This document shows, one piece after another, positions 4,109 to 28,334 of a stretch of DNA of 64,000 nucleotides; position 1 is the first letter of the stretch, and each line of letters opens with the position of its first letter. The DNA comes from Christensenellaceae bacterium (GTDB lineage: Bacteria; Bacillota; Clostridia; Christensenellales; CAG-138): the NCBI GenBank assembly GCA_022510765.1, contig JAFLSU010000001.1:70551-134550 (forward strand), in the 5' to 3' direction. The position numbers were made by a program, and so were the translations under genes. The notes under the pieces are model-generated. The model made no database searches. It was given only the letters and a program-made list of their open reading frames with translations, and had not been told where the DNA came from.

Positions 4109-5578
4109 ATGAAAAAGCTGTATACTTCATTTGGTATCGGCAGGCGTAATTTCTTTGCGTGGGCATCGGCATTGTGCATGCTGCTGTCTCTAACGGCAAG
4201 AATCGTTTATTACAGTCTCTCCGTTGAAGGAGCGGAGGGCGTCGGAACGACTTTTTTTGCCTTTTTCTTTTTGATTGTACCAATCATTGCCAACGCATGG
4301 TTCATTTGCGCACTGCTCGTACACGGTGAAAACCGCCTCTACAAAACAATATCCCCCGTCTACCTCGGCGCGGTCTTTTTCACAGCAAGGATCTGCACCC
4401 TGTATGCGAGCCCCGCAAATTACATCGTCACCTCAAGGTGGCATGTCGCGCTCTGCATCATTTTTTACATCGCCGCCTGTGTCATTTACAGGTTGACCGT
4501 CAATGCGGGCGGGATCAAAAACCGCATTCCGGCTTTGCTCATCTTTTTACTTCCGTTTATTTATCACATAGCAATCGAAGATTTCCCGAGATTTGCGGAG
4601 CATCCCGAGATTTCCTATTGGCTTGCTGAGATTTCAATATTGCTGATGATGCTTTCGATCATCCTTGTCGTTATCGGCATGAGAAAGCTCCAAAGCGAAA
4701 TGCCCTTGCCGATGCGAGGCGACCGCTGCGACGGACGTAGGCTTCGTTCGCTCGATCCAATATCCGGCGTTGGCGTATACATTATGCCCGATCGCAACGG
4801 AGCAAGTAATCTGTTTATGGATTGCTTCGAATGCTCCAATGCGGAAAAGTACATAAGGCAGAAGCGCGACGAGGGACTGTCAAGCTTTGGCTACACCCAC
4901 TTGATATTGGCTGCATATGTGCGTACCGTTTCGCAGCGTCCTGCGGTCAACCGATTTATCAGCGGTCAAAAGATATATTCCCGTGGCGATGAGATTGAAG
5001 TCTCGATGGCGATAAAGAAGGAAATGACGACCGATGCCTCCGAAACCATTATCACCATATATTTTTCACCCGAGGATACCGCAAAGGATGTCTACGAAAA
5101 GTTTAATGCGGAACTTGAAAAAGCAAAGGGATCGAGTGAGCTAGACAGCAGCTTCGACAAGCTTGCGGGGCTTCTCAACCTAATCCCGGGCGTGTTTATG
5201 AAGTTCACTGTTTGGCTTTTCAAAACCATGGATTATTTTGGAATGCTCCCCCGCTGGCTGCTGAGGCTCAGTCCGTTCCATGCGTCCTTGTTCATTACAA
5301 GCATGGGTTCGCTCGGCATTCCGCCCATCTATCATCATTTATATGATTTTGGAAATATCCCGATCTTCGTCGCGTTCGGGATCAAGCGCAGGGAGAACGA
5401 GCTTCAAGCGGATGGCTCGATCGTGCAACATAAGTACATCGATTTTTCCGTCGTTACTGACGAACGCATTTGTGATGGCTTCTACTTTGCTTCGTCAATA
5501 AAGCAGATGAAGCGTTTCCTTGCGAATCCCGAAAAGCTCGATGTTCCGCCCGAAACAATTGTTAGGGATGTTGACTGA
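4109..5578 (+). CDS. Polytopic membrane protein with a C-terminal 2-oxoacid dehydrogenase acyltransferase (E2 catalytic, CAT-like) domain and no lipoyl domain
   Basis: 489 aa. The N-terminal roughly 195 aa contain several hydrophobic helices. The C-terminal roughly 285 aa end in ..FSVVTDERICDGFYFASSIKQMKRFLANPEKL, which resembles the E2 motif ..S.DHR.IDG...A.FL..L...LE.P..L. Confidence 0.7.
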   Translation: MKKLYTSFGIGRRNFFAWASALCMLLSLTARIVYYSLSVEGAEGVGTTFFAFFFLIVPIIANAWFICALLVHGENRLYKTISPVYLGAVFFTARICTLYASPANYIVTSRWHVALCIIFYIAACVIYRLTVNAGGIKNRIPALLIFLLPFIYHIAIEDFPRFAEHPEISYWLAEISILLMMLSIILVVIGMRKLQSEMPLPMRGDRCDGRRLRSLDPISGVGVYIMPDRNGASNLFMDCFECSNAEKYIRQKRDEGLSSFGYTHLILAAYVRTVSQRPAVNRFISGQKIYSRGDEIEVSMAIKKEMTTDASETIITIYFSPEDTAKDVYEKFNAELEKAKGSSELDSSFDKLAGLLNLIPGVFMKFTVWLFKTMDYFGMLPRWLLRLSPFHASLFITSMGSLGIPPIYHHLYDFGNIPIFVAFGIKRRENELQADGSIVQHKYIDFSVVTDERICDGFYFASSIKQMKRFLANPEKLDVPPETIVRDVD

Positions 5579-17160: not shown

Positions 17161-18285
17161 ATGTATTCCCTTGATGAAACCGCCAGAGCATGGGCAGAGA
17201 TCGACCTCAAAGCGCTCAAACACAACCTCGATTACGCCAAGCAGCGTGTCGGACGCAAGGTAATATGCGTCCTGAAGGCTGACGCTTATGGGCATGGTGC
17301 GGTTGAATGCGGCAGGTATTTGCAGCAAAACGGAGCCGATATGTTCGCGGTTGCCGCCCTGTCGGAAGCGGTCGAGCTAAGAGAAAACGGCATTACGATA
17401 CCTATACTGATTTTGGGCTATACACCCGCAGTGTATGCGGATATACTTGGCTCTCTCGATATTCAGCAGACGGTCATCGATGAAGCCCATGCATACGACC
17501 TCAACGAATCAGCTAAAGAATGCGGCCAAACCGTCAAGGTTCATATCAAGCTGGATACCGGCATGTCGCGTTCTGGCATATATGCTCAGGCAAACCATAA
17601 CCTCGCAATCGATGCCGCCGAGCGCATATACTCTATGAGCAATCTGGATGCCGTCGGAATGTATACACATTTCGCCGCCGCCGATAATCCCGCGGAGCGT
17701 GACTATACAACTTTTCAATATCGGAATTATTCCATAGTTTATAACGGACTTGCGGAGCGCGGCATTCGTATTGAAAACTGTCATGTAAGCAACTCAGCCG
17801 CTATCCTAAATAGTCCCATTCATTTTGATTCTATCCGTGAGGGCATTATGCTTTACGGGATGTATCCCGACAGCCTGCCCGTTGAGGACGGCGTACTAAG
17901 ACCTGTAATGACGCTGAAAGCCCGCGTTGCACAGGTCCGGGACTTTCCCGCTGGAACCACCGTTGGTTATGGCCGCACTTATCGATCGGATACGCCTTTT
18001 ACAAGCGCGGTGATCACCGCAGGCTACGCCGACGGCTACCCAAGAAGACTTTCAAACAAATCATATGTAGTTATAAACGGAAGCCAATATCCGCAGATAG
18101 GCAGAATTTGTATGGATGTCCATATGGCGGACGTGACAGGAGGAAATGTCAAGCAAGGCGATGAGGTCGTTCTTTTTGGCAACGGTGGCATGAGCATCGA
18201 GAGCGTTGCACAGATCGTAGGTACAATAAATTACGAACTAACATGCTTAGTCACTGAAAGGGCGCGTAGGGTTTACATTAAATAG
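17161..18285 (+). CDS. alr: Alanine racemase
   Basis: 374 aa. It has the PLP-lysine motif VLKADAYGHG and the C-terminal GRICMD... typical of Alr. Confidence 0.95.
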   Translation: MYSLDETARAWAEIDLKALKHNLDYAKQRVGRKVICVLKADAYGHGAVECGRYLQQNGADMFAVAALSEAVELRENGITIPILILGYTPAVYADILGSLDIQQTVIDEAHAYDLNESAKECGQTVKVHIKLDTGMSRSGIYAQANHNLAIDAAERIYSMSNLDAVGMYTHFAAADNPAERDYTTFQYRNYSIVYNGLAERGIRIENCHVSNSAAILNSPIHFDSIREGIMLYGMYPDSLPVEDGVLRPVMTLKARVAQVRDFPAGTTVGYGRTYRSDTPFTSAVITAGYADGYPRRLSNKSYVVINGSQYPQIGRICMDVHMADVTGGNVKQGDEVVLFGNGGMSIESVAQIVGTINYELTCLVTERARRVYIK

Positions 18286-18479: not shown

Positions 18480-18568
18480 GGAGAGGTATCGAAGTGGTCA
18501 TAACGGGGCTGACTCGAAATCAGTTTGCGCGAGAGCGCACATGGGTTCGAATCCCATCCTCTCCGCCA
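18480..18568 (+). tRNA. tRNA-Ser (anticodon CGA), CCA-encoded
   Basis: It folds by hand. The acceptor stem is GGAGAGG/CCTCTCC. The T-arm is ATGGG-TTCGAAT-CCCAT. The anticodon stem is GCTGA/TCAGT with loop CT-CGA-AA. A long variable arm (TTGCGCGAGAGCGCAC) is typical of Ser, and the 3' end is GCCA. Confidence 0.9.
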
Positions 18569-18639: not shown

Positions 18640-19314
18640 ATGGGAAGTAAATATTACGAAGCCTATGATAATCGTTTCAGGCAGATCCATGAACAGAATT
18701 TACAATGGTTCAGTGAATCTCCGTCCCCCATCGTAGCGGAAACCATCCGCACCTTTTCCATTTCCCCTCAGAGCAAACTATTAGAGATTGGCTGCGGCGA
18801 GGGGCGCGACGCATATTCGCTCCTCCGGCAGGGATTTGATCTTTTAGCAACCGATGTGTCTGCGGAAGCAATCGCATTTTGCAGGCGGAAGTTCCCCGAT
18901 TTTGCAGCGCATTTTCAAGTCACGGACTGCATCGCCGGAACGCTCGGCAGGACATTTGATTTCCTCTATGCGGTGGCTGTTCTCCATATGCTCGTTTTGG
19001 ACGACGACCGAAATGCATTTTATCGCTTCATCCGTGTGCATTTGGCTCCCACTGGGATCGCCTTGATCTGCACGATGGGCGACGGTACCTTTGAAAGGCA
19101 GACCGACATACACACCGCGTTTGACCTGCACGAGCGAATCCATGAACCGTCCGGAAAAGCCGTGCAAATTGCTGAGACCTCCTGCCGGATCGTCAATTTC
19201 CAGACCTTTGAAGAAGAGCTGATGCGAAACGGTCTAAACATTGTCAAAGAAGGCGTGACCGCTGTCGAGCCGGACTTTCCGCAAATGATGTTCGCTGTAG
19301 TTAAGAGGCATTGA
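18640..19314 (+). CDS. Class I SAM-dependent methyltransferase
   Basis: 224 aa with motif I LLEIGCGEGRD and a post-I acidic residue (LLATDVS). The gene is bracketed by the duplicated tRNA 3' flank. Confidence 0.85.
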   Translation: MGSKYYEAYDNRFRQIHEQNLQWFSESPSPIVAETIRTFSISPQSKLLEIGCGEGRDAYSLLRQGFDLLATDVSAEAIAFCRRKFPDFAAHFQVTDCIAGTLGRTFDFLYAVAVLHMLVLDDDRNAFYRFIRVHLAPTGIALICTMGDGTFERQTDIHTAFDLHERIHEPSGKAVQIAETSCRIVNFQTFEEELMRNGLNIVKEGVTAVEPDFPQMMFAVVKRH

Positions 19315-19396: not shown

Positions 19397-19440
19397 GCCA
19401 AAACGGCACCGTAATTTTGATACAAAGTTACGGTGCTTAT
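19397..19440. repeat. Direct repeat copy 2 (degenerate tRNA-Ser 3' end plus terminator hairpin)
   Basis: The sequence is GCCAAAACGGCACCGTAATTTTGATACAAAGTTACGGTGCTTAT. The hairpin GCACCGTAA/TTACGGTGC is preserved by compensatory changes. Confidence 0.8.
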
Positions 19441-19503
19441 CATTTATAAAGAAAACAATATATCAGAGAGTGCGTCTCGGTGAAAGGAGTTCGCATCACC
19501 ATA

Positions 19504-19764
19504 ATGTTTAGAAACAAGGATATTATTTCCGCACACAAATTCTGTGCAAATAATATGGCTTCACTTCGGAAAGATAAGGTATGTGGTTGCTTTTACTGCA
19601 TGAAGATTTTTTCATCGGATAAAATTGAAAGCTATATCGAGGAAAATTGGGACACTGCAATATGCCCGTACTGCGGCATCGATTCTGTTATCGGTGAAAG
19701 CTCGGGGTACCCTATAACCAATGATTTTTTGCAGCAAATGAAAACATATTGGTTTGAAAGCTAA
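19504..19764 (+). CDS. Small Cys-rich (zinc-ribbon-like) hypothetical protein
   Basis: 86 aa from the ATG (MFRNKD). It contains VCGCFYC ...TAICPYCGIDSVIG, that is two CxxC-like knuckles. The start is uncertain (GTG at 19480 or ATG at 19504). Confidence 0.55.
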   Translation: MFRNKDIISAHKFCANNMASLRKDKVCGCFYCMKIFSSDKIESYIEENWDTAICPYCGIDSVIGESSGYPITNDFLQQMKTYWFES

Positions 19765-19950
19765 GCGATTTTAATTTGTAGGCACAATTTAGAAGCGAGG
19801 CGATTTGATGTTCGGAAAAGGATTTTGGAAAAAGTACTCGGCCTTTGAAACTCTATGACCTCAGATTGCTTTAACCAAAACAATGACAGATAATATTGCT
19901 CATTTGAAAACAAATAATGTTGAATACCATATTGTAGCAGGAGGTTATTT

Positions 19951-20043
19951 ATGTTTTCGGGCAGTGGACATGATAATACTCATCCGATTGTGCTTATAAA
20001 AGTCAAAGCTGCCAGATCGATATCGACCTGGCAGCTTCAATAG
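19951..20043 (+). CDS. Possible 30-aa micro-ORF
   Basis: AGGAGG lies 6 nt before the ATG. The product would be MFSGSGHDNTHPIVLIKVKAARSISTWQLQ. The 3' part overlaps a 10-bp-stem hairpin. There is no other support. Confidence 0.25.
   Translation: MFSGSGHDNTHPIVLIKVKAARSISTWQLQ
19994..20037 (-). terminator. Candidate terminator downstream of the AP2 gene pair
   Basis: The perfect 10-bp stem AAGCTGCCAG (20006-20015) pairs with CTGGCAGCTT (20028-20037). On the minus strand it is followed by TGACTTTTATA. Confidence 0.5.
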
Positions 20044-20156
20044 CTAAAAGTTCTGAAGATGGTATCCCTGTCTCAGGCCCTTTGCATATCTCAAACTTTC
20101 AGTCACTTTATGTATGTTGAAAGCATGTTTACATATGGCATATATATCCTTCGTTT

Positions 20157-20915
20157 CTACACAGAAATCGCTTCATTCATATTCGTTATGACATTAAACT
20201 CTCCATTGACCTTCTCCACCTCATAGAGCAGAGGATTTTTCTCAGCCCATTCTGGGTCGGTTTCGGCCCGTTTCTGCCATTTGCGGTAAGCCGCAGTAAA
20301 GCCGAGATGCAGAACCGCCTCAGCATCCAGTCGGGCTTGCACAGCCTCGTCAAATGTTTTGTACGTGCCAAGATAATAATGCTTTCTCTTAAATCCAATC
20401 TGCGCGGCATAAGTATCATGTTTTGTTTTCACAACACCACGAAATCCGCTGACATTATTTTTACGGTTTTTCGGCACAGCTAATTGTTCCAGGCATGTGC
20501 CGCTAACGTAATGTAAGCGGGAGCGCATTTCCGGCAGAGTTTCTTTCATTTTTAAGCATCCGCAGCTCTCTGTGGAACCATTTTTCAAATTACCGGCGTC
20601 TACCGAATGTAAGTTTCCGCAGTCACATTGGCACAGCCACTGAACATAGCCATTTTTATCTTTCGCTCTTCTCAGGACTGTAAGTTTGCCGAACCGCTGA
20701 CCGGTCAAATCTTCAATGCGCCGATATTTCTTTCGTTTCTCAGAGTCGCAGCCACAATCCATAATTGCACCGGAAGTCAACTGCCTGGTCGTCGCAAGAA
20801 TCTCACCGGCACAGTCGCATCGGCAGAGCCAGAGTTGCCTGCGGTTTTTATCTTTCTTTGCTTCTGCAACCGTCAATTTACCAAATCGTTGTCCGATCAG
20901 ATTTCCGTCACTCAT
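20157..20915 (-). CDS. DNA-binding protein with 2 Cys-rich (Zn-ribbon-like) repeats and a C-terminal AP2 domain
   Basis: 252 aa from the ATG, 8 nt after AGGAGGG. It has two repeats of G-Q-R-F-G-K-L-T-V..W-x-C-x-C-D-C..L..G...C-G-C. The C-terminus, SGFRGVVKTKHDTYAAQIGFKRKHYYLGTYKTFDEAVQARLDAE, matches the AP2/ERF-type pattern (G.rGV......w.A.I......yLG.f.t.eeAa.A). Confidence 0.8.
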   Translation of the reverse strand: MSDGNLIGQRFGKLTVAEAKKDKNRRQLWLCRCDCAGEILATTRQLTSGAIMDCGCDSEKRKKYRRIEDLTGQRFGKLTVLRRAKDKNGYVQWLCQCDCGNLHSVDAGNLKNGSTESCGCLKMKETLPEMRSRLHYVSGTCLEQLAVPKNRKNNVSGFRGVVKTKHDTYAAQIGFKRKHYYLGTYKTFDEAVQARLDAEAVLHLGFTAAYRKWQKRAETDPEWAEKNPLLYEVEKVNGEFNVITNMNEAISV

Positions 20916-20978
20916 CTGCTCAACCCTCCTGATAGTTGCAACAAATCTTCGCACTAAACCTGTGTTCTCAATATCTAT

Positions 20979-22163
20979 CTACTCTTTCTTATTGCCCTCG
21001 GCAACGTCGCCTACATTCGAGTATCCGTTGTAATACCAGTCAAGAAACCGCTCGTACATTTCTTCTCCGCGCTTCCTTGCTTTTACAGCGTCCTGAATGT
21101 CGGAGTATGAACCCAGATAGTAAGTCTTTCCTTTGAAGGTAATCTGAGCCGTCCACATTCCGTTGCCGTTCAGATAGACTCCGTTATGCCCGCTGGTATT
21201 GGATTTGATGGTTGATTCCATCCGCCTTTCAATCAAGCGGACGGATGTTCCGCCTACAAACTGCATATTTTTTTGATAGACTTCCCGCTGTAGACAGCCG
21301 CAGCTCTTTGTATGTCCATAGAGCAGATTTCCGTGTCGAACAGTTGTCTGGTTGCCGCACTCACACTGACATCGCCAATAGCCAATATCATCTTTCCATT
21401 CCGCAAACCCAATAACAGTAAGCCGGCCAAAGATTCTGCCGGTCAAATCAACGAGTTCACGGGGTTTGGAGCGCAAATCACTTTGTGAGACATCTGAGTT
21501 CGTTCCATCGGGTTTGTAATCTTGAATCCCAGCGGAGCTGATAAGCGCTAGACGTCTCTTCTGTTCGCCTGACAACTGCTTTCTGGCGAGATAACGCTTA
21601 CAACCGCAGTTTGTGATCTGACCGGACTGAAGACGAGTTTGCCCCACATCGATTTCCACACCGCACTCACATTTGCAATGCCAGTAGTGCAGACCAGACC
21701 TTTTTCCGGCATACTCCATTACCACAAGGGAGCCAAACTGCTTTCCCACATAATCCTTCAATGGGGGATGACTCAAACAGCCGCAGCTTTTTTTATAGCC
21801 TTGGGTGAGCTGCGTACTGATCGCCAAGCACTCATTTCCACAATCACACCGACATCGCCAGACGGTACCGCCACTTGAACCACGCTCGTTGGTTGGCTCA
21901 AGACAGATCAGTTTTCCGAACCGCTGTCCAGTCAGATCTTTCTGCCCGGACTTGACCTTGATGCCGCTACAGCCGCAGTCCCTGACCGTGGCGCGTTGCA
22001 GTTGTCGTGTATCCAGCAATATCTCGCCGCCGCAGTCACAGCAACATTTCCAGACAGAATAACGATGCCGATATAGCGGAGTCCGTTCCTGCACAGTTAG
22101 TTTCCCAATGCGGTATCCGATCTCGATTTTGGGTCGTTGTATAGTCAGATCTGTTTTATTCAT
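20979..22163 (-). CDS. DNA-binding protein with 4 Cys-rich (Zn-ribbon-like) repeats and a C-terminal AP2 domain
   Basis: 394 aa from the ATG (MNKTDL), preceded by AGAGGG. It has four copies of the same roughly 50-aa repeat (for example LTGQRFGKLICLEP..VWRCRCDCGNE..LTQGYKKSCGC). The AP2 segment is SGHNGVYLNGNGMWTAQITFKGKTYYLGSYSDIQDAVKARKRGEE. It is a paralog of the downstream gene, including the RBS region. Confidence 0.8.
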   Translation of the reverse strand: MNKTDLTIQRPKIEIGYRIGKLTVQERTPLYRHRYSVWKCCCDCGGEILLDTRQLQRATVRDCGCSGIKVKSGQKDLTGQRFGKLICLEPTNERGSSGGTVWRCRCDCGNECLAISTQLTQGYKKSCGCLSHPPLKDYVGKQFGSLVVMEYAGKRSGLHYWHCKCECGVEIDVGQTRLQSGQITNCGCKRYLARKQLSGEQKRRLALISSAGIQDYKPDGTNSDVSQSDLRSKPRELVDLTGRIFGRLTVIGFAEWKDDIGYWRCQCECGNQTTVRHGNLLYGHTKSCGCLQREVYQKNMQFVGGTSVRLIERRMESTIKSNTSGHNGVYLNGNGMWTAQITFKGKTYYLGSYSDIQDAVKARKRGEEMYERFLDWYYNGYSNVGDVAEGNKKE

Positions 22164-22494
22164 TGGTCTCAACCCTCTTTGCTACAACCACAACCCCTCC
22201 ATTCGACGTACCCATCGAACTGATAAAGTTTTTTGCTTTCATCGTGATCGCCCCAAAAGGCAGTGGCTAATGGATATGAGCCTTCCGTCGCCTATGTTCT
22301 CCTCTATTCATACATATATTTCTCACACTATTTCTTCCCAGTGCACCGTACTGTAACACGGGCTTCGCATACTATCGTACAGGTGAACAATTTTAACGCC
22401 CATTCGCCGCTCTGCATTTCTTCTACCACAGTTTTTGAAAGCATCTCTACCTTGGCAAAAGATCAATGCAATCATGGCGGCATTTGCTTTGCAC

Positions 22495-25400
22495 TCAGCT
22501 ATTGGAAATGCGTTTTTTGCGGGAAATACTTCCGAGATTAAGCACGGCACCGGTTAACAGAAGCCCGCCCAAAAGATAGAATGGCAACGTGCCGATTCCA
22601 CCGGCAGCAGGGAGATCATATAAACTGGGTTTATCGCTCAATACCATGCTTTCCAAATTGTTTACATTTAACCATTTAATGTCAGGATATTGTTGCTCAA
22701 ATTCTTCAATCTCCTCATCACTAAAATAGAAATAATACTTGTTAGGATCAAGATAATAACCAGCCGGCGCAGTTAACTCTTGCAGATAATAAACCACATT
22801 CGGGGCCAAAATTATACCTTGATTAAAATTCGTACGGAACTCAAATATTCCCTCATCATTCGTCGTTCCTGTTGTAATTTCGTGACCGTCAGCACTATAT
22901 AAACCATACCTCGCACCAGGAAGCCTGGTCCACTCACTCGATCCGAGTCCCACACCTCTTTCATCAATTTTTTCGATTGTAAGATGTATTCTGTACCATA
23001 CAGAACCACTATCAATGTCCATCTCACCGTTAGTTTCAGATGAAACACCAAAATTAGAAAAGCGTAAGATTGCTATATTACCGTAATAAATTCGCCCAGT
23101 TTCTTCTTCATCGAATTCAATCATTACATCATATTTAATGGTATACTCATGAGCACCCGGTTGCTGCAAATAAATAGTTAGTACCCTTGTATCGTTATCC
23201 CATTCGTAGGTATAATCTTTTTCATAGGCCAGTCGCGTATTATCCTCATCAATAACCAACGACCCCAGAACAAAAAACATATTTTTCATTTCATCCACGA
23301 TTTTAAGCTTTGCTTCCTCGCCTTCGCCTACATACTCGCCCAAATTAACTTTGCCACCCTCATTAATAACGATGGTATAACTACCAAAGCAGCTTTCGTT
23401 ACCAGAAGGCGAGCTCGTCTCAGTCTTTTTAATTAGTTTAGGAATAGGTAGTTTTATCTCAGATCTAGCTGCCGTAGCAGTACCATTACGTAAACGTGCC
23501 TCATTAATATATTCATCTTCTGTACTATCCAAAATTTTAACTTCATCGTATGTACCCAGTCCATATGTATCTGTTGCATACGTTATTATCAAATCAGCAT
23601 CTTCCATTAAACTCCAATGTGTACACCAATCCTCTCCACCTTCGAGATTAAACTGATCCTTTAAACTATATCTACAATTCTCTTCTTTACGGTTTACTAA
23701 ATAAAGCCAACCTACCGAATTGCAATAATAAGCAATCGTATCATCTTCATTAGCATCACTTACCTCCGGTAACACAAAACTTTCCCCATCATATCGAATT
23801 GCAACACTAGCACCATTCAAACGCCAAGTATAAGTCGATTCATCACCCAATTTCTCTTGGTCAACTATATTCCACTGACCATAATTTAGCCCATTATACT
23901 TAGGAATCGACGCTGTAATCATAAAATGATACTTGCCATCGTTCAGGTCAAGCTTCCCTGTTTTCTTTATTTCTGGCTTCGTCAAGCTTTCTCCACCTTC
24001 AGATGGAATCTCAAAGTCAAAATTTAACCAAAATTCTACACCCATAGCATCACTTGAATTTTCTTCAAACGTAATAGCAAGCAGACCATCTTTCTCAACT
24101 ACATAAGTGCCAATAACATCATTGCCAAGCTTAACCTCGCCAGCAACCTTTCCTTTAATTTCAAAAACTTCTTTCGGAAGCTGGCAGGTATAGACGCCCG
24201 ATTGAAATCCGTTATGATCAGTCGAATAAATATACATTGAGAACTTGTACTTCCCGCCAGGATACATGTTATAATGCCCCTCGTCATCTGGGTATATTTC
24301 TACATTGTTTTGTTCGTCTATTTTCCAGATGATTTTGTAGTTAAACTTTCCTCCTATGGAACGAATATATTCTTCCAAATTTCTTCCCTCAACAACATCT
24401 GCCAACACAAACGGTGAAAAGTGGTCTGCTGTAAAAGTTACTTTCGTTACAACTCCATTCTCACCAGTCGCGATTTCTGCTTCCAGATTTTCTGGTGTCT
24501 CTTCATCCTGCAAGTGGAACAACTTCCAGTCACCCGTATTAATAAATTTTTCAACCGGTGTTTGGAACTCCAAGGACACTGTTACATTACCATTTAACTG
24601 CACCTCATCTCCATCTACATTCACGAAGGAAATATCATAAGGATAGATTGCCGCTAACGCGAGCATCATTCCTGGCTGCTCCGGTTGTTGCAAGGCATTT
24701 TGTAAGGCCTGTTTTATCTTATCCAGCTGTTCTTGATGTTCTTGACCCTCGATCTGACTCACTCGCAACGACGCACCCTCGGGCACCGCATTACCATTGT
24801 CATATACAGATACTGTCACATTACCAATATTAACGGTTAAGTCAGTGTCCTCATTAGTAATTGCGGGTACTTCTGAATTCTCATCGGAAGGTTTCGGCTG
24901 CTCCTCAGTAGGTTCATCCAACTCTACCTCACGGAAACAGCCGTCTCCGTGGACATGCTCATAAAGCACTGTTTTCTCGCAGATCAACTGACCATCCAAA
25001 TCGTAACAATTCTCCGGACTATGGGTATGCATCTCCAGCTCACCACAAATCAACATCCCTGTTTCATCGTAGCAGCTTTCCTGATGCTCGTGGGGTGCAA
25101 TTTCAGGCAGTTGGCAGAGCAGACTTCCTTCCTCGTCCCAACAACCTTCGGTATGTACGTGAACCACATAATCTGCTTCTCCGCAGATTAGCTGTTCCTC
25201 TTCGTCGTAACATTCAGTTCCATGCTCATGAACAATGAGAGGGCAGTCCAGCAGCAGATTGCTGCCTACCTCTGCATCGCCGCTTGAATCGATAAGGTTG
25301 TCATCATCATTCGGATCTTCCTCCGCCGCTATCTCCCGGAAACAGCCGTCCCCATGGATATGCTCATAAAGCACTGTTTTTTCACAGATCAACTGACCGT

Positions 25401-26157
25401 CCAGATCGTAGCAATTCTCCGGACTATGGGTATGCATCTCCAGCTTATCGCAAATCAATATCCCCATTTCATCGTAACAGCTCTCTTGATGCTCATGGGG
25501 TGCGATTTCAGGCAGTTGGCAGAGCAGGTTTCCGGTCTCATCCAAACAACCTTCGGTATGTATGTGAACCACATAATCTGCTTCTCCGCAGATCAGATTC
25601 TTCTCTTCGTCGTAACATTCCGGCCCATGCTCATGAACGCTGAGAGGACAGTCCAGCAACAGATTACTGCCTGCCTCTTCCTCTGCCTCATGGAAACATT
25701 CGTCTCCGTGGACGTGCTCAAAAAGTGCTATTTTTCCGCAGGTCAACTGACCGTCCGCGTCGTAACAATTCTCCGAACTATGCGTATGCAGCTCCAGCTC
25801 ACCACAAATCAACATCCCCGTTTCATCGTAACAGCTTTCCTGATGCTCATGGGGCGCGATTTCAGGCAGTTGGCAGACCAGGTTCCCCGCCTCGTCCCAA
25901 CAACCTTCGGCATGCGCGTGAATCACATAATCCGCTTCCCCACATATAAGCTGCTCCTCTTCGTCGTAGCATTCCGGCCCATGCTCATGAACGATGAGAG
26001 GGCAGTCCAGCAACAGGCTATTGCTTGCCGCCGAGAACCTTGGCAAAGTTATTATATAGACCAATGCCAGCATCATCGCCACCACGCGTATCCAAACGGA
26101 GCGCCCCTTGCGCTTTTTGGAGGACGCATTTTGCGCCTGATTTTCAAATTTCATCAT
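22495..26157 (-). CDS. Sortase-anchored cell-surface protein (adhesin-like) with an N-terminal Cys/His-rich tandem repeats and a C-terminal Cna-B/SpaA-type domain
   Basis: The start is at MMKFEN (GAAGGA RBS), giving 1,220 aa. A signal/TM segment (WIRVVAMMLALVYIITL) is followed by three repeats of about 120-135 aa. A Cna-B-like domain is present (LPGARYGLYSADGHEITTGTTNDEGIFEF...YYLQELTAPAGYYLD). The C-terminus has LPAAG, then the hydrophobic stretch GIGTLPFYLLGGLLLTGAVL, then a basic tail RKKR, which reads as an LPXTG-like sorting signal. Confidence 0.85.
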   Translation of the reverse strand: MMKFENQAQNASSKKRKGRSVWIRVVAMMLALVYIITLPRFSAASNSLLLDCPLIVHEHGPECYDEEEQLICGEADYVIHAHAEGCWDEAGNLVCQLPEIAPHEHQESCYDETGMLICGELELHTHSSENCYDADGQLTCGKIALFEHVHGDECFHEAEEEAGSNLLLDCPLSVHEHGPECYDEEKNLICGEADYVVHIHTEGCLDETGNLLCQLPEIAPHEHQESCYDEMGILICDKLEMHTHSPENCYDLDGQLICEKTVLYEHIHGDGCFREIAAEEDPNDDDNLIDSSGDAEVGSNLLLDCPLIVHEHGTECYDEEEQLICGEADYVVHVHTEGCWDEEGSLLCQLPEIAPHEHQESCYDETGMLICGELEMHTHSPENCYDLDGQLICEKTVLYEHVHGDGCFREVELDEPTEEQPKPSDENSEVPAITNEDTDLTVNIGNVTVSVYDNGNAVPEGASLRVSQIEGQEHQEQLDKIKQALQNALQQPEQPGMMLALAAIYPYDISFVNVDGDEVQLNGNVTVSLEFQTPVEKFINTGDWKLFHLQDEETPENLEAEIATGENGVVTKVTFTADHFSPFVLADVVEGRNLEEYIRSIGGKFNYKIIWKIDEQNNVEIYPDDEGHYNMYPGGKYKFSMYIYSTDHNGFQSGVYTCQLPKEVFEIKGKVAGEVKLGNDVIGTYVVEKDGLLAITFEENSSDAMGVEFWLNFDFEIPSEGGESLTKPEIKKTGKLDLNDGKYHFMITASIPKYNGLNYGQWNIVDQEKLGDESTYTWRLNGASVAIRYDGESFVLPEVSDANEDDTIAYYCNSVGWLYLVNRKEENCRYSLKDQFNLEGGEDWCTHWSLMEDADLIITYATDTYGLGTYDEVKILDSTEDEYINEARLRNGTATAARSEIKLPIPKLIKKTETSSPSGNESCFGSYTIVINEGGKVNLGEYVGEGEEAKLKIVDEMKNMFFVLGSLVIDEDNTRLAYEKDYTYEWDNDTRVLTIYLQQPGAHEYTIKYDVMIEFDEEETGRIYYGNIAILRFSNFGVSSETNGEMDIDSGSVWYRIHLTIEKIDERGVGLGSSEWTRLPGARYGLYSADGHEITTGTTNDEGIFEFRTNFNQGIILAPNVVYYLQELTAPAGYYLDPNKYYFYFSDEEIEEFEQQYPDIKWLNVNNLESMVLSDKPSLYDLPAAGGIGTLPFYLLGGLLLTGAVLNLGSISRKKRISNS
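24922..26025 (-). repeat. Three tandem coding repeats (about 357-405 nt units) in the adhesin gene
   Basis: Protein units begin near residues 69, 188 and 323 of the long ORF (SNLLLDCPL..). They are near-identical at the protein level. The mirror ORFs at 24949-25191 and 25354-26190 on the plus strand reflect the DNA repetition. Confidence 0.9.
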
Positions 26158-26304
26158 GACGGTGTTCCTTCTTTCTTTAAAACAATTTAACAAAGCCATA
26201 TCAACGTTCTTCATCCGTATATTTCTCAAAATATATGAGAAAATAATATCGGGTGAGGAAGCGGCGGCTTCGTCTGTCGTCTGCTTTGATGATTGAGGCA
26301 GAAT

Positions 26305-26326
26305 ATTTCGCAGAGTTCTTCACTCT
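26305..26326. repeat. Inverted repeat, left arm (ATTTCGCAGAGTTCTTCACTCT)
   Basis: It is the exact reverse complement of 27743-27764 (22 of 22). Confidence 0.95.
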
Positions 26327-26337
26327 GCACATTCAGC

Positions 26338-26366
26338 ATTATAGCATAAGTGCTTGGCTTTTGCAA
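26338..26366 (-). promoter_or_regulatory. Near-consensus outward-facing promoter inside the IR-bounded segment, directed at the adhesin gene
   Basis: On the minus strand, TTGCAA (26366-26361) is followed by the 17-nt spacer AAGCCAAGCACTTATGC and TATAAT (26343-26338). It lies 11 nt inside IR-L, and transcription would run through IR-L to the ATG at 26157. Confidence 0.55.
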
Positions 26367-26547
26367 GAGGGTTCACAAAAAAGCCACTTATATTTTTGGC
26401 TTTTCTTCATGATGAGATACGAATTATGAGATTTTTCCATTGAGAGACAGCGATTATCGGAGCAATCGCCGTCAAAGCCGCCGTCATACGAGAGTAAATT
26501 CGCACCGCTGAAATAATAGATAAAATCTTCAAAAGGAGGACATTATT

Positions 26548-27666
26548 ATGTCAAGGAAAGGCGAAAACATTTACAAGCGTAAAGACAACCGCTGGGAGGC
26601 ACGGTATATCAAGGGTTACACAGCGGAAGGAATCATTCGTTATGGCTATTGCTATGCAGCAACGTATCGAGAAGTAAAAGAAAAGGTGACGGCCGCAAAG
26701 GCTGCCTTGATGAATAATCTCACTCCGGAACCAGTGAGCATCAGACGTCGGTTCGGTCTTTACTGCGACGAATGGCTCCGATTGAATCGCAGTCGTGTCA
26801 AGGAATCCACTTATGTCAAGTATATAACGAACATAGAAAATCATATTAAACCAAAGCTCGGCGGGTGCTTTGTGCAGGGGCTTTCTTCACTGATTGTTGA
26901 GGAATTCAGCCATGATTTGCTTTATGAAAAGGAATTATCCCCAAAAACAGTTCGGGACATTTTGATGCTTCTTCATGCTATTCTCAAATATACGCAGAAA
27001 CAGGTGCCGAATATGCCTTTGGTAGAAGTGGTCTATCCAAAGGACATAAAAAAGGAAATGAGGGTATTAAGCCGAGACGAACAAACGCGCTTGGTTCAAT
27101 ATCTGCTTTTAGATATGGACGAATGTAAATTTGGCGTATTGCTTGCGCTGCTGACCGGACTGCGGATAGGTGAAGTATGCGCACTGCGCTGGCGGGATGT
27201 CTCTTTGACAGACAAGCTGATGTGCGTTTCTTCTACTATGCAGCGACTTAAAAATCTCGATGAGAATGCACAGCAAAAAACAAAAATTATCATCAGCAAT
27301 CCAAAAAGCAACACATCTGCCCGACAGATCCCATTGACCGATTATACCGTGAAGCTCTGTAAAGTCTGGGAGGTTCGTGATCCCTCTGCGTTTGTTCTTA
27401 CGGGAGAGACTGACCGCTATATTGAGCCTCGCACATTGCAGTATCGCTTAGAGCGCTATACCAAGGATTGCGATCTTTCCGGTGTCCATTTTCATGTGAT
27501 GCGACACACTTTCGCTACCCGATGTGTTGAGGTTGGTTTTGAAATTAAGTCCCTTTCCGAAATCTTAGGTCACACAAGTCCGAAGTTCACGCTAGAGCGG
27601 TACGTTCATTCTTCTTTGGAGTTGAAGCGTGACAACATGAGCAAGCTGGGGGCTATCGGTTACTGA
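26548..27666 (+). CDS. Tyrosine-type site-specific recombinase/integrase with an N-terminal AP2-like arm-binding domain
   Basis: 372 aa with an AAGGAGG RBS. The N-terminus is ENIYKRKDNRWEARYIKGY...YGYCYAATYREV (Tn916-Int-like arm-binding pattern). The catalytic set is TGLRIGEVCALRW (R), HVMRHTFAT (H-x-x-R) and LGHTSPKFTLERYVH (H...Y). Confidence 0.9.
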   Translation: MSRKGENIYKRKDNRWEARYIKGYTAEGIIRYGYCYAATYREVKEKVTAAKAALMNNLTPEPVSIRRRFGLYCDEWLRLNRSRVKESTYVKYITNIENHIKPKLGGCFVQGLSSLIVEEFSHDLLYEKELSPKTVRDILMLLHAILKYTQKQVPNMPLVEVVYPKDIKKEMRVLSRDEQTRLVQYLLLDMDECKFGVLLALLTGLRIGEVCALRWRDVSLTDKLMCVSSTMQRLKNLDENAQQKTKIIISNPKSNTSARQIPLTDYTVKLCKVWEVRDPSAFVLTGETDRYIEPRTLQYRLERYTKDCDLSGVHFHVMRHTFATRCVEVGFEIKSLSEILGHTSPKFTLERYVHSSLELKRDNMSKLGAIGY

Positions 27667-27742
27667 TTTATCGCCGTCAGATTGCTCCGTCAAAAACATC
27701 GAAAAACTCCTGATTTCAGCAATATTTTCCTTTGCAAATAAT

Positions 27743-27764
27743 AGAGTGAAGAACTCTGCGAAAT
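27743..27764. repeat. Inverted repeat, right arm (AGAGTGAAGAACTCTGCGAAAT)
   Basis: It is the exact reverse complement of 26305-26326. Confidence 0.95.
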
Positions 27765-28047
27765 TAGATATTCACAAAGGTTAGTTTTTAACAGAACTAC
27801 TCAAATTGATGAATATCATGAAGTGGAGCAAGCATGTTGATCTCTCTTGAGGGGAACAACGTGTTTTTCTCTTGTGCCACTTTTTATTTTCCTTTTCGTG
27901 GGTGTTCAAAGCCAAGGGGGCTAACTCTGCCAGCGGGGAGAGTTCATGCACAGGTGGCAGCGTCCTTTTGCTACCCATGGCTAAAAACCAAAAAGCAAGG
28001 CTCTCAGCATTCACTGCGCCAAGAGACTTGTTTACATATTCAACACC

Positions 28048-28334
28048 TTAATCCAGCAGATACAGGTGCAGCAAGTCCTCCCGGCTTTCCTCCCGAAGTC
28101 GTTCCACAGCATACCGAAGCCTTCCTCTGGCGTGGGGATTTCTTCGGCACAAGATATCCGGCGCCATTGCGCCTGTTTCTTTGGGTCTGGACCATTTGGT
28201 CAAGCTATGATGCGTTCTGTTATAATCGTTTTCATTTCCTCAACCGTGATGTTCCTTTCACAGGCCAATTTTTCAAAGATAGTTTCTTGATTTTTTATAT
28301 CAATCACCTCCACAAATAATGATAGTACTCCCAT
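28048..28334 (-). pseudogene. Decayed small MGE-type gene (in-frame TGA plus a frameshift)
   Basis: The minus-strand reading is MGVLSLFVEVIDIKNQETIFEKLACERNITVEEMKTIITERIIA-TGA-PNGPDPKKQAQWRRISCAEEIPTPEE. A frame change is then needed to continue ..RYAVERLREESREDLLHLYLLD. The AW.NPDP...W....PTPEE pattern recalls small Spo0A-C-like proteins of clostridial conjugative elements. That family assignment is from memory only. Confidence 0.35.

Follow-up and report, generated by a model that had tools for sequence, protein, structure and literature searches.

What controls the expression of a surface protein in this bacterium, and which other genes are controlled along with it? The question is raised by a block of genes in a 64,000-nt stretch of DNA from a Christensenellaceae bacterium (contig JAFLSU010000001.1), the whole of which is called here the window. 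On its minus strand, a gene for a large adhesin is followed by two genes encoding proteins with cysteine-rich Zn-ribbon units and a C-terminal AP2-type domain, named AP2-long and AP2-short in what follows. Beyond the start of the adhesin gene lies a cassette enclosed between perfect inverted repeats (IR) and carrying a tyrosine recombinase gene and an outward-facing promoter. In the reading favoured here, the unit would be a phase-variable operon, in which the cassette, by flipping, switches the adhesin together with co-transcribed AP2/Zn-ribbon regulators acting on other transcription; we give this reading about as much credence as doubt. The parts of the block are the following.

20003-20040, minus strand: intrinsic-terminator-like hairpin closing the unit (17-bp stem, dG -28.5 kcal/mol, z -5.3 against shuffled sequences)
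20157-20915, minus strand: AP2-short, 252 amino acids (aa), with two Zn-ribbon units, an AP2 domain and a conserved C-terminal extension
20979-22163, minus strand: AP2-long, 394 aa, with four Zn-ribbon units and an AP2 domain
22164-22494, minus strand: spacer between the adhesin and AP2-long genes, without detectable terminator
22495-26157, minus strand: cell-wall adhesin, 1220 aa
26158-26304, minus strand: leader between the adhesin start codon and IR-L, read from the sequence
26305-26326: left inverted repeat of the cassette (IR-L), ATTTCGCAGAGTTCTTCACTCT, 22 nt, 100% complementary to IR-R
26338-26366, minus strand: outward promoter P_out, TTGCAA-17-TGnTATAAT, by consensus match
26465-26474, plus strand: left copy of a candidate arm-type site, ATCGCCGTCA
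26499-26526, plus strand: weak promoter-like site for the recombinase gene, inside the cassette (TTCGCA-16-TAAAAT, 9/12, by consensus only)
26548-27666, plus strand: tyrosine recombinase, 372 aa
27670-27679, plus strand: right copy of the candidate arm-type site, ATCGCCGTCA
27743-27764: right inverted repeat of the cassette (IR-R), 22 nt, perfect complement of IR-L

The gene coordinates in the window agree with the genes called by NCBI and ENA in the metagenome-assembled genome of origin, and the AP2-short product is 100% identical to J1E60_00405. A preliminary description of this DNA, made from the letters and their open reading frames (ORFs), had placed the adhesin gene and the two AP2/Zn-ribbon genes on one strand and had closed the block with a strong hairpin; both observations hold.

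A putative invertible cassette that carries its recombinase

The recombinase gene is bracketed by IR-L and IR-R, which delimit a cassette of 1,460 bp. Its product matches the Pfam families Phage_integrase (PF00589, E 4e-25) and Phage_int_SAM_3 (PF14659), and in the PDB it matches Tn1549 Int (E 2e-11). In Foldseek searches with the predicted structure (mean confidence, pLDDT, 82), 6en2 is matched with E 6e-12, and the model most resembles Tn1549 Int and lambda Int in its full length. The catalytic set R206, K253, H316, R319, H342 and Y352 is invariant in alignments A3 and A4. By these matches and the model, the enzyme is of the Tn916/Tn1549/lambda-Int type, with predicted catalytic, SAM-like core-binding and putative arm-binding domains.

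An AP2-like N-terminal domain had been attributed to this recombinase. In the AlphaFold2 (AF2) model, residues 8-55 form a strand-strand-strand-helix arrangement, that is the arm-binding/AP2-like topology, and to this extent the attribution stands. No Pfam match is found for the first 70 residues, and the AP2-like arm domain is therefore a matter of predicted topology. As to kinship with the neighbouring AP2/Zn-ribbon proteins, an alignment of the profile of that family with the recombinase profile by hhalign reveals no relationship (probability 0.7%). Two other identities were considered and set aside: a classic integrase acting at directly repeated att sites, because the sites are inverted, 1.46 kb apart, and enclose the recombinase gene only; and a serine invertase of the Hin/Gin/Cin type, because the enzyme is a tyrosine recombinase and the architecture alone is similar.

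P_out belongs to the cassette and occupies part of the stretch that separates IR-L from the start of the recombinase gene. It reads from 26366 to 26338, on the strand opposite to the recombinase gene, outward through IR-L to the adhesin. It is the top sigma-70-like match of the 9.3 kb between 19300 and 28600 (10/12, with an extended -10). The assembled orientation, in which P_out faces the adhesin, appears to be the ON state. The junction in this orientation reads GAGGCAGAAT-ATTTCGCAGAGTTCTTCACTCT-GCACATTCAGC, and the flipped junction would read GAGGCAGAAT-ATTTCGCAGAGTTCTTCACTCT-ATTATTTGCAAAGG. Leader and IR-L together would give the adhesin a 5' untranslated region of ~170 nt, as deduced from the sequence.

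The two copies of the ATCGCCGTCA 10-mer are identical and in direct orientation. In many related cassettes (L085-L164; fetched loci are designated by L numbers throughout), a CNGTCAA motif likewise occurs as direct copies in the two non-coding ends, one ~35-100 nt ahead of the start of the recombinase gene and the other 0-25 nt beyond its stop. It is plausible that CNGTCAA/ATCGCCGTCA represents an arm-type site for the N-terminal domain of the recombinase.

The cassette family in metagenomes

Using an alignment of related recombinases, 80 metagenome loci were fetched, of which 56 had enough flanking sequence to be tested. Perfect flanking IRs of at least 13 nt were found in 52 of these 56, with cassettes of 1.29-1.56 kb and a common core, TTTCGYAGAGTW; the same core is present in the cassettes of L064, L019 and L086. 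The outward promoter is also a property of the family. Its score is at least 10 in 34 of 46 cassettes, at the matching place, as against 6 of 46 for the inward direction, and the scores average 10.7 outward, 8.9 inward and 8.6 in shuffled sequences.

Evidence of inversion comes from pairs of near-identical loci found in different human-gut assemblies. A 1.48-kb cassette is inverted amid collinear flanks in L100 and L098 compared with L101, in L123 compared with L105, and in L102 compared with L103 and L105, with a junction overlap of ~20 nt. Both orientations thus exist among near-identical loci, and therefore the cassette family inverts in nature. The recombinases of these loci are ~56% identical to that of the window. 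Furthermore, for about one quarter of the 120 closest recombinase homologues, the longest contig measures 1.3-1.6 kb, which is the length of the cassette; this would be expected if assemblers break at the IRs owing to the coexistence of both orientations in a sample. IR-recombinase-IR cassettes of 1.3-1.6 kb form a very large family, of which the recombinase of the window is a member.

The adhesin and its probable transcription unit

The adhesin has a signal-like N-terminus, three Cys- and His-rich repeats of ~135 aa, encoded by 405-nt direct repeats at 24913-25971, and a SpaA prealbumin-like domain (Pfam SpaA, E 2.6e-9). The NCBIfam model of the SpaH/EbpB-type anchor region matches at E 8e-11, under its cutoff. 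At the C-terminus, the motif LPAAG is followed by the hydrophobic segment GIGTLPFYLLGGLLLTGAVLNLG and by the basic tail SISRKKRISNS. By these signatures the protein is a predicted sortase-anchored cell-wall protein of the LPXTG type, with a variant motif in which A replaces T. No sortase gene was seen in the block.

The spacer between the adhesin and AP2-long genes (about 322 nt) contains no terminator-like site and folds no better than shuffled sequences (z +0.67). In a related genome (L002), the AP2 gene starts 10 nt past the adhesin stop codon. Because the spacer has no terminator, because a strong one follows AP2-short and because of the short gap in L002, read-through from the adhesin to the AP2 genes is likely in the window, without being a universal feature. 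The adhesin and the AP2 genes would thus be co-transcribed.

Comparison with L001, the closest relative, separates two parts within the unit. The adhesins of the window and of L001 (3-5489) are unrelated (BLASTP E>0.4) and stand beside orthologous AP2 pairs, which are 76-80% identical between the two loci and under purifying selection (dN/dS, the ratio of nonsynonymous to synonymous substitution rates, 0.138 for AP2-long and 0.136 for AP2-short). The AP2 pair is the conserved part of the unit, the adhesin the exchangeable part. The conservation of the pair beside unrelated adhesins fits a regulator better than a partner of one particular adhesin.

Two minor observations may be added. The adhesins of the window and of L001 both have N-terminal Cys/His motifs of the 'C.HEH..EC' type. 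Also, a 25-nt repeat containing TGAGAAATATA is present in copies 84% identical at 26210-26234 and 22307-22331 (minus strand); the 11-mer TGAGAAATATA itself has only two copies in the whole window, ~55 nt before the adhesin gene and ~145 nt before AP2-long. This repeat was not retained as an operator because it is not conserved in L001, L002 and L064.

The AP2/Zn-ribbon proteins

AP2-long and AP2-short are paralogues, as the preliminary description had proposed (BLASTP E 2e-35, with several repeat-to-repeat alignments). A Cys-rich unit of ~64 aa (GxxFGxLTV...WxCxCxCG...SCGC) occurs twice in the short protein and four times in the long one, and is followed in each by one C-terminal domain; AP2-long contains four matches to the hidden Markov model of the family.

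That this C-terminal domain is of the AP2 type had also been claimed, and several lines of evidence argue for it. The Pfam AP2 model (PF00847) finds AP2-short with E 0.12 and 13.2 bits, under the 33.3-bit cutoff, and gives no match with AP2-long, but homologues of the two proteins are matched with E values down to 6e-6 and a top score of 26.9 bits. When compared with the PDB, the family profile retrieves the plant AP2/ERF chains TEM1, WRI1 and ERF096 (E 0.017). Finally, the AF2 model of AP2-short (pLDDT 87) shows strands at 161-163, 169-175 and 178-185 and a long helix from residue 188, and is superimposed on the AP2 domain of TEM1 with 0.8-1.0 Å over 35 residues (probability 1.0). The AP2 assignment of both proteins is thus supported by homologue scores, profile matches and model superposition, while lying below the Pfam threshold. 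Both would be sequence-specific DNA-binding proteins.

Among profile libraries, the top matches are with phrog_374, named 'HNH endonuclease' (E 8e-71 for AP2-long, 5e-46 for AP2-short). These alignments are restricted to the repeated DNA-binding part, at positions ~186-260 of the 617 of the profile, and no HNH or other nuclease domain is found in Pfam at E<=10. Nothing comes above threshold in Pfam or NCBIfam, and there is no PADLOC defence-system match. The C-terminal extension is conserved and specific to the family. At E<=1e-5, the family comprises 3861 homologue clusters, mostly from gut Clostridia, a few of them labelled 'transcriptional regulator' by NCBI. Viral relatives are distant (at most 40% identical). 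Tandem arrays of two to four paralogues, as in the window, are seen in L068, L245, L041 and L056; the order in L245 is pilin, sortase, pilin, sortase, AP2 (346 aa), AP2 (311 aa).

Linkage of AP2/Zn-ribbon genes to surface loci and to switches

Fetching by the AP2 gene alone yielded 78 genome loci, mostly from Lachnospiraceae, Oscillospiraceae and Christensenellaceae, with several copies in some genomes. The statistics were made on 68 of them, in which the AP2 gene was recovered in the ORF calls and from which redundant copies had been removed; a surface protein was defined by a sortase signal or a length of at least 1000 aa. Such a protein is encoded directly upstream, on the same strand, in 15 of the 68 loci versus a background of 3.1% (p 2e-9), and within -5 to +3 genes in 34 of the 68, versus 22% expected. 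According to Pfam, the neighbours include sortases, LPXTG/DUF7601/DUF5979 pilins, SpaA and BspA-LRR giants and a VWA protein. In several of the loci counted as having no surface gene, the AP2 gene heads a polysaccharide or teichoic-acid cluster (CapD, Bac_transf, Wzz-kinase, LytR_cpsA_psr, GT1/GT2, pyruvyl transferase, Glyphos_transf).

Switches flanked by IRs and accompanied by a recombinase occur in 17 of the genome loci chosen by the AP2 gene, and they are of two types. Six loci (L008, L009, L013, L019, L032 and L064) have the cassette type of the window, the IR core of L064 being almost identical. The other 11 (L010, L024, L026, L027, L033, L035, L045, L049, L050, L083 and L247) have a fim-like arrangement, in which a tyrosine recombinase of ~280 aa is followed by a perfect IR pair of 14-36 nt, 150-360 bp apart, and then by an operon. 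These fim-like switches are located upstream of pilus, adhesin or exopolysaccharide (EPS) operons that contain an AP2/Zn-ribbon gene. At switch loci, the AP2 gene either comes next to the switch, ahead of any other gene, or closes the pilus or adhesin operon that is switched.

Loci selected conversely, by their recombinase, give a concordant picture. Seven AP2 genes start at most 92 bp from a cassette IR and point away from it, within 261 kb of near sequence, as against one AP2 gene in 387 kb of far sequence. Within the fetched flanks, an AP2 gene is present at only 8 of the 52 IR-flanked cassette loci, and none is found near the locus pairs seen in both orientations.

In other Clostridia too, therefore, AP2/Zn-ribbon homologues do co-occur with IR-flanked recombinases and surface adhesins, as the preliminary description had asked. 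The HxH-repeat adhesins it had in mind are not the general partner, since only three of the linked surface proteins carry such motifs.

Proposed mechanism

The following mechanism may be envisaged. The 1,460-bp cassette (IR, P_out, recombinase gene, IR) would be flipped by its own recombinase. In the ON state, its promoter end would abut the adhesin gene, and P_out would transcribe through IR-L into the adhesin; the transcript would then run on into both AP2/Zn-ribbon genes and end at the 20003-20040 hairpin. With the cassette flipped, all three genes would be silent. The AP2/Zn-ribbon proteins, made in the ON phase only, would couple the transcription of other genes to the state of the switch. 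Their targets may be other surface-structure loci, or maybe their own operon.

By analogy, the AP2 proteins would be phase-variably expressed regulators like FljA, MrpJ or UpxZ rather than recombination accessory factors, because most AP2 genes have no switch in their vicinity, because most cassettes have no AP2 gene in theirs and because the AP2 and recombinase profiles show no homology. The regulatory role itself, like its targets, is something that we infer. Of the three roles that may be considered, trans-regulation, activation of their own operon and an effect on switching, the last is the least likely.

The preliminary description had imagined a self-contained phase-variable surface module on a tRNA-linked island. 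The three-way association of surface gene, switch and AP2 gene is real, and the idea of a module is therefore partly right: the conserved outward promoter and the relatives found in both orientations agree with it. The tRNA-linked island is not supported (see the last section).

Several points weigh against the proposed mechanism. The window cassette was found on a single contig, in an exact-protein look-up, and orientation variants were not found; because only one contig carries this copy, its inversion is deduced rather than observed. The promoter and terminator calls are consensus matches. The linkage statistics were obtained with crude ORF calling on the best 80 loci, related genomes included; about half of the AP2 loci have no surface gene by these crude criteria, and most have no recombinase or switch within 10 kb. 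In L001, the homologous spacer (5496-5526) contains a strong hairpin (dG -25.6 kcal/mol, z -3.2), the counterpart of which has decayed in the window at ~22250-22290, the next ~110 nt of the leader being conserved in both; therefore, the AP2 genes may have their own promoter in some genomes.

Alternative roles of the AP2/Zn-ribbon proteins

A first alternative would be that the AP2 proteins serve exclusively the surface operon in which they are encoded, as its activators or anti-terminators, and provide positive feedback or processivity without regulating other loci; they would then be comparable in function to RlrA/EbpR of pilus islands or to UpxY, which is encoded first in capsule operons of Bacteroides. 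Several gene arrangements would suit such a role: the AP2 gene comes first in EPS or giant-adhesin operons of L008, L024, L033, L035, L045, L121 and L131, and last in pilus operons of L009, L050 and L245; each linkage concerns a single operon; and long operons, with genes encoding up to 3,363 aa, might need processivity factors. However, this varying position, first or last, also speaks against an activator of the operon itself, as does the 76-80% identity of the AP2 pairs of the window and L001 beside completely different adhesins, and we know of no AP2 domain with anti-termination activity. This explanation is on the whole unlikely, while deserving to be kept in mind.

A second alternative corresponds to what the preliminary description had put forward, namely that the AP2 proteins bind arm-type or IR-proximal DNA as accessory or directionality factors and bias the switch. 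There is a precedent in E. coli, where PapB inhibits FimB-mediated switching. In addition, AP2 genes adjoin cassette IRs far above chance, the N-terminal domain of the recombinase has the same predicted strand-strand-strand-helix topology, and accessory sites could be provided by the CNGTCAA motif, directly repeated at the two ends of the cassette. Against this stand the absence of relationship between the AP2 and recombinase profiles and the distribution of the genes. Most cassettes with IRs, mostly with an outward promoter as well, lack an AP2 gene in the fetched flanks; the loci caught in both orientations have none nearby; most AP2 loci have no recombinase; and a second, unrelated type of switch, with recombinases of ~280 aa, has AP2 genes beside it as well. 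The proposal is therefore improbable. An identification as Xis-like directionality factors was likewise discarded, the proteins being multi-domain, of 252 and 394 aa, and not small basic winged-helix proteins.

According to a third alternative, the AP2/Zn-ribbon genes would be domesticated or decaying remnants of HNH-AP2 homing endonucleases located at operon ends, with no role towards the adhesin. The match with phrog_374, the distant relatives in viral contigs and the multi-copy, sometimes tandem, occurrence of the family would be in line with this view. Yet the proteins have no nuclease domain, the PHROG matches cover the repeated DNA-binding part alone, and the viral relatives are at most 40% identical; moreover, a dN/dS of 0.14, a conserved family-specific C-terminal extension and a location that is not random, but favours switch boundaries and neighbours of a single functional class, speak against remnants. 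Such an origin, with no role towards the adhesin, is very improbable.

Comparison with known systems

The phase-variable operon proposed here is reminiscent of several known systems. In the Salmonella Hin/hix/fljB-fljA system, the recombinase gene also lies inside the invertible segment and an outward promoter drives a surface-antigen gene. Moreover, a DNA-/RNA-binding regulator, FljA, is co-transcribed and controls another locus, a role that in the present case would be played by the AP2 proteins. However, the Salmonella enzyme, Hin, is a serine invertase dependent on Fis and on an enhancer, whereas the tyrosine recombinase of the window is of the Tn916/lambda-Int type and has a putative arm-binding domain. 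In addition, FljA is unrelated to the AP2/Zn-ribbon proteins and the host of the window is a Gram-positive gut anaerobe.

In Proteus mirabilis MR/P (mrpI, mrpA-H, mrpJ) and in the E. coli fimS/FimB/FimE and pap/PapX/PapB systems, a tyrosine recombinase flips the promoter of a fimbrial or adhesin operon that ends with the gene of a transcription factor, and the regulators form a large set of paralogues, every one of them linked to a single fimbrial operon. The fim-like variant found in other genomes, with its ~280-aa recombinase and its inverton of 150-360 bp, adjoins AP2/Zn-ribbon genes. On the other hand, in MR/P and fim the recombinase is encoded outside the invertible element, not inside it as in the window. 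The regulators of these systems are helix-turn-helix (HTH) proteins, not AP2 proteins, and the structures are chaperone-usher pili, not sortase-anchored proteins.

The capsule loci of Bacteroides (Mpi, UpxY/UpxZ) offer another parallel, since surface structures of a gut commensal are under invertible promoters there, and since locus-specific regulators encoded first in the operon set a hierarchy; AP2 genes similarly head EPS operons in L008, L033, L035 and L045. Nevertheless, UpxY is NusG-like, UpxZ is an unrelated small protein and Mpi is a globally acting serine invertase.

Comparable too are the RecV switches of Clostridioides difficile (cwpV, flgB, cmrRST), which are tyrosine-recombinase invertons controlling cell-wall proteins of Clostridia (PMC2784873, PMC11892184). 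RecV differs in being encoded elsewhere and serving several sites, and at cwpV control is exerted through termination and not through the orientation of a promoter. In Clostridium sp. D5 and Intestinimonas, flipping was demonstrated for short Clostridial invertons of inverton group 139 / invertase group 35 (PMC11892184), and the fim-like switches described above match this group in size and layout. The word 'AP2' has no occurrence in PMC11892184, AP2-type proteins are not mentioned in PMC2784873 either, and the 1.46-kb recombinase-carrying cassettes are described in neither paper.

Finally, the AP2 DNA-binding fold is shared with phage HNH-AP2 homing endonucleases (phrog_374) and with plant and apicomplexan AP2/ERF factors, and the phage proteins also contain repeated Cys-rich modules. 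In contrast with the endonucleases, the genes of the window encode no nuclease domain, are chromosomal and under purifying selection, and are linked to surface operons, not to phage genomes.

Biological meaning

Surface phase variation is a main route by which gut commensals respond to immunity, phages and niche changes. To our knowledge, it is well worked out in Bacteroides and enterobacteria and hardly so in the Clostridia that dominate the gut. That invertible promoters control surface structures is already known, and catalogues exist of Clostridial invertons adjoining tyrosine recombinases. No description of the AP2/Zn-ribbon family or of its link with invertons was found in the open-access literature searched, and the recombinase-carrying cassette of 1.3-1.6 kb with a conserved outward promoter was not found described in the searchable literature. 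The cassette may be under-reported if IR-based inverton searches are limited to short segments.

It is tempting to go further and to imagine that the AP2/Zn-ribbon proteins are widespread, undescribed cellular transcription factors of the AP2 type in gut Bacillota, acting as an output of invertons, and that the portable cassette has spread to thousands of loci. This wider proposal is tentative, and we incline rather to doubt it. If it were true, each flip would turn on a surface structure together with a regulator reprogramming other loci, which would create a phase-variable regulon and a hierarchy of surface loci. A compact switch cassette would become searchable in any genome, and more than 3,800 clusters of candidate regulators would be tied to pili, adhesins and exopolysaccharides of Lachnospiraceae, Oscillospiraceae and Christensenellaceae. 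There would then be bacterial examples of AP2 domains employed in cellular regulation instead of as modules of homing endonucleases or integrases, which bears on the way AP2 came to be a domain of transcription factors in plants and apicomplexans. Testable systems exist in cultured strains, such as Merdimonas faecis BR31 (L027, where a fim-like switch is followed by the operon and then by the AP2 gene) and Christensenella intestinihominis AF73-05CM02 (L073).

The flanks of the block

The neighbouring features of the window are as follows.

17161-18285, plus strand: alanine racemase
18480-18568, plus strand: tRNA-Ser
18640-19314, plus strand: S-adenosylmethionine (SAM) methyltransferase
19480-19764, plus strand: Cys-rich ORF of 94 aa
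28478-28804, plus strand: XRE-type HTH gene

The view that the block is a mobile island integrated at tRNA-Ser with the recombinase as its integrase, close to what had been supposed at first, is hardly credible: the tRNA gene, the Tn916/Tn1549 integrase type of the recombinase and the duplicated tRNA 3' end at 19397-19443 would favour it, but the tRNA-derived direct repeat brackets an 832-bp segment with the methyltransferase alone, the recombinase is bounded by inverted, not direct, repeats 1.46 kb apart, as in 52 of the 56 relatives, no compositional (GC) break is seen at the block, no further copy of the tRNA repeat is present near 27.8-28.4 kb, and a related genome has, close to the same alanine racemase gene, an adhesin-AP2 unit that is not accompanied by a recombinase. 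The direct repeat itself, of ~47 nt (18565-18612/19397-19443), consists of the 3' end of tRNA-Ser (GCCA) and its terminator hairpin, and the methyltransferase matches the PADLOC 'mad2' model (E 8e-13). Repeat and methyltransferase have the appearance of a very small insertion or duplication at this tRNA gene, distinct from the adhesin block.

The 94-aa ORF, with its CxxC...CxxC motifs, matches phrog_30788 (E 4e-21), a family of unknown function. It is read towards the AP2 genes, with which it has the terminator region in common. It was rejected as a part of the module, being without homologue in any related locus. On the other side, directly beyond IR-R, a small gene remnant is found at 27781-28320 (minus strand), interrupted by a stop codon and a frameshift; the 86-aa peptide reconstructed from it has no useful Pfam match. 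If the cassette were flipped, its promoter would read antisense into this remnant, toward the XRE-type HTH gene.

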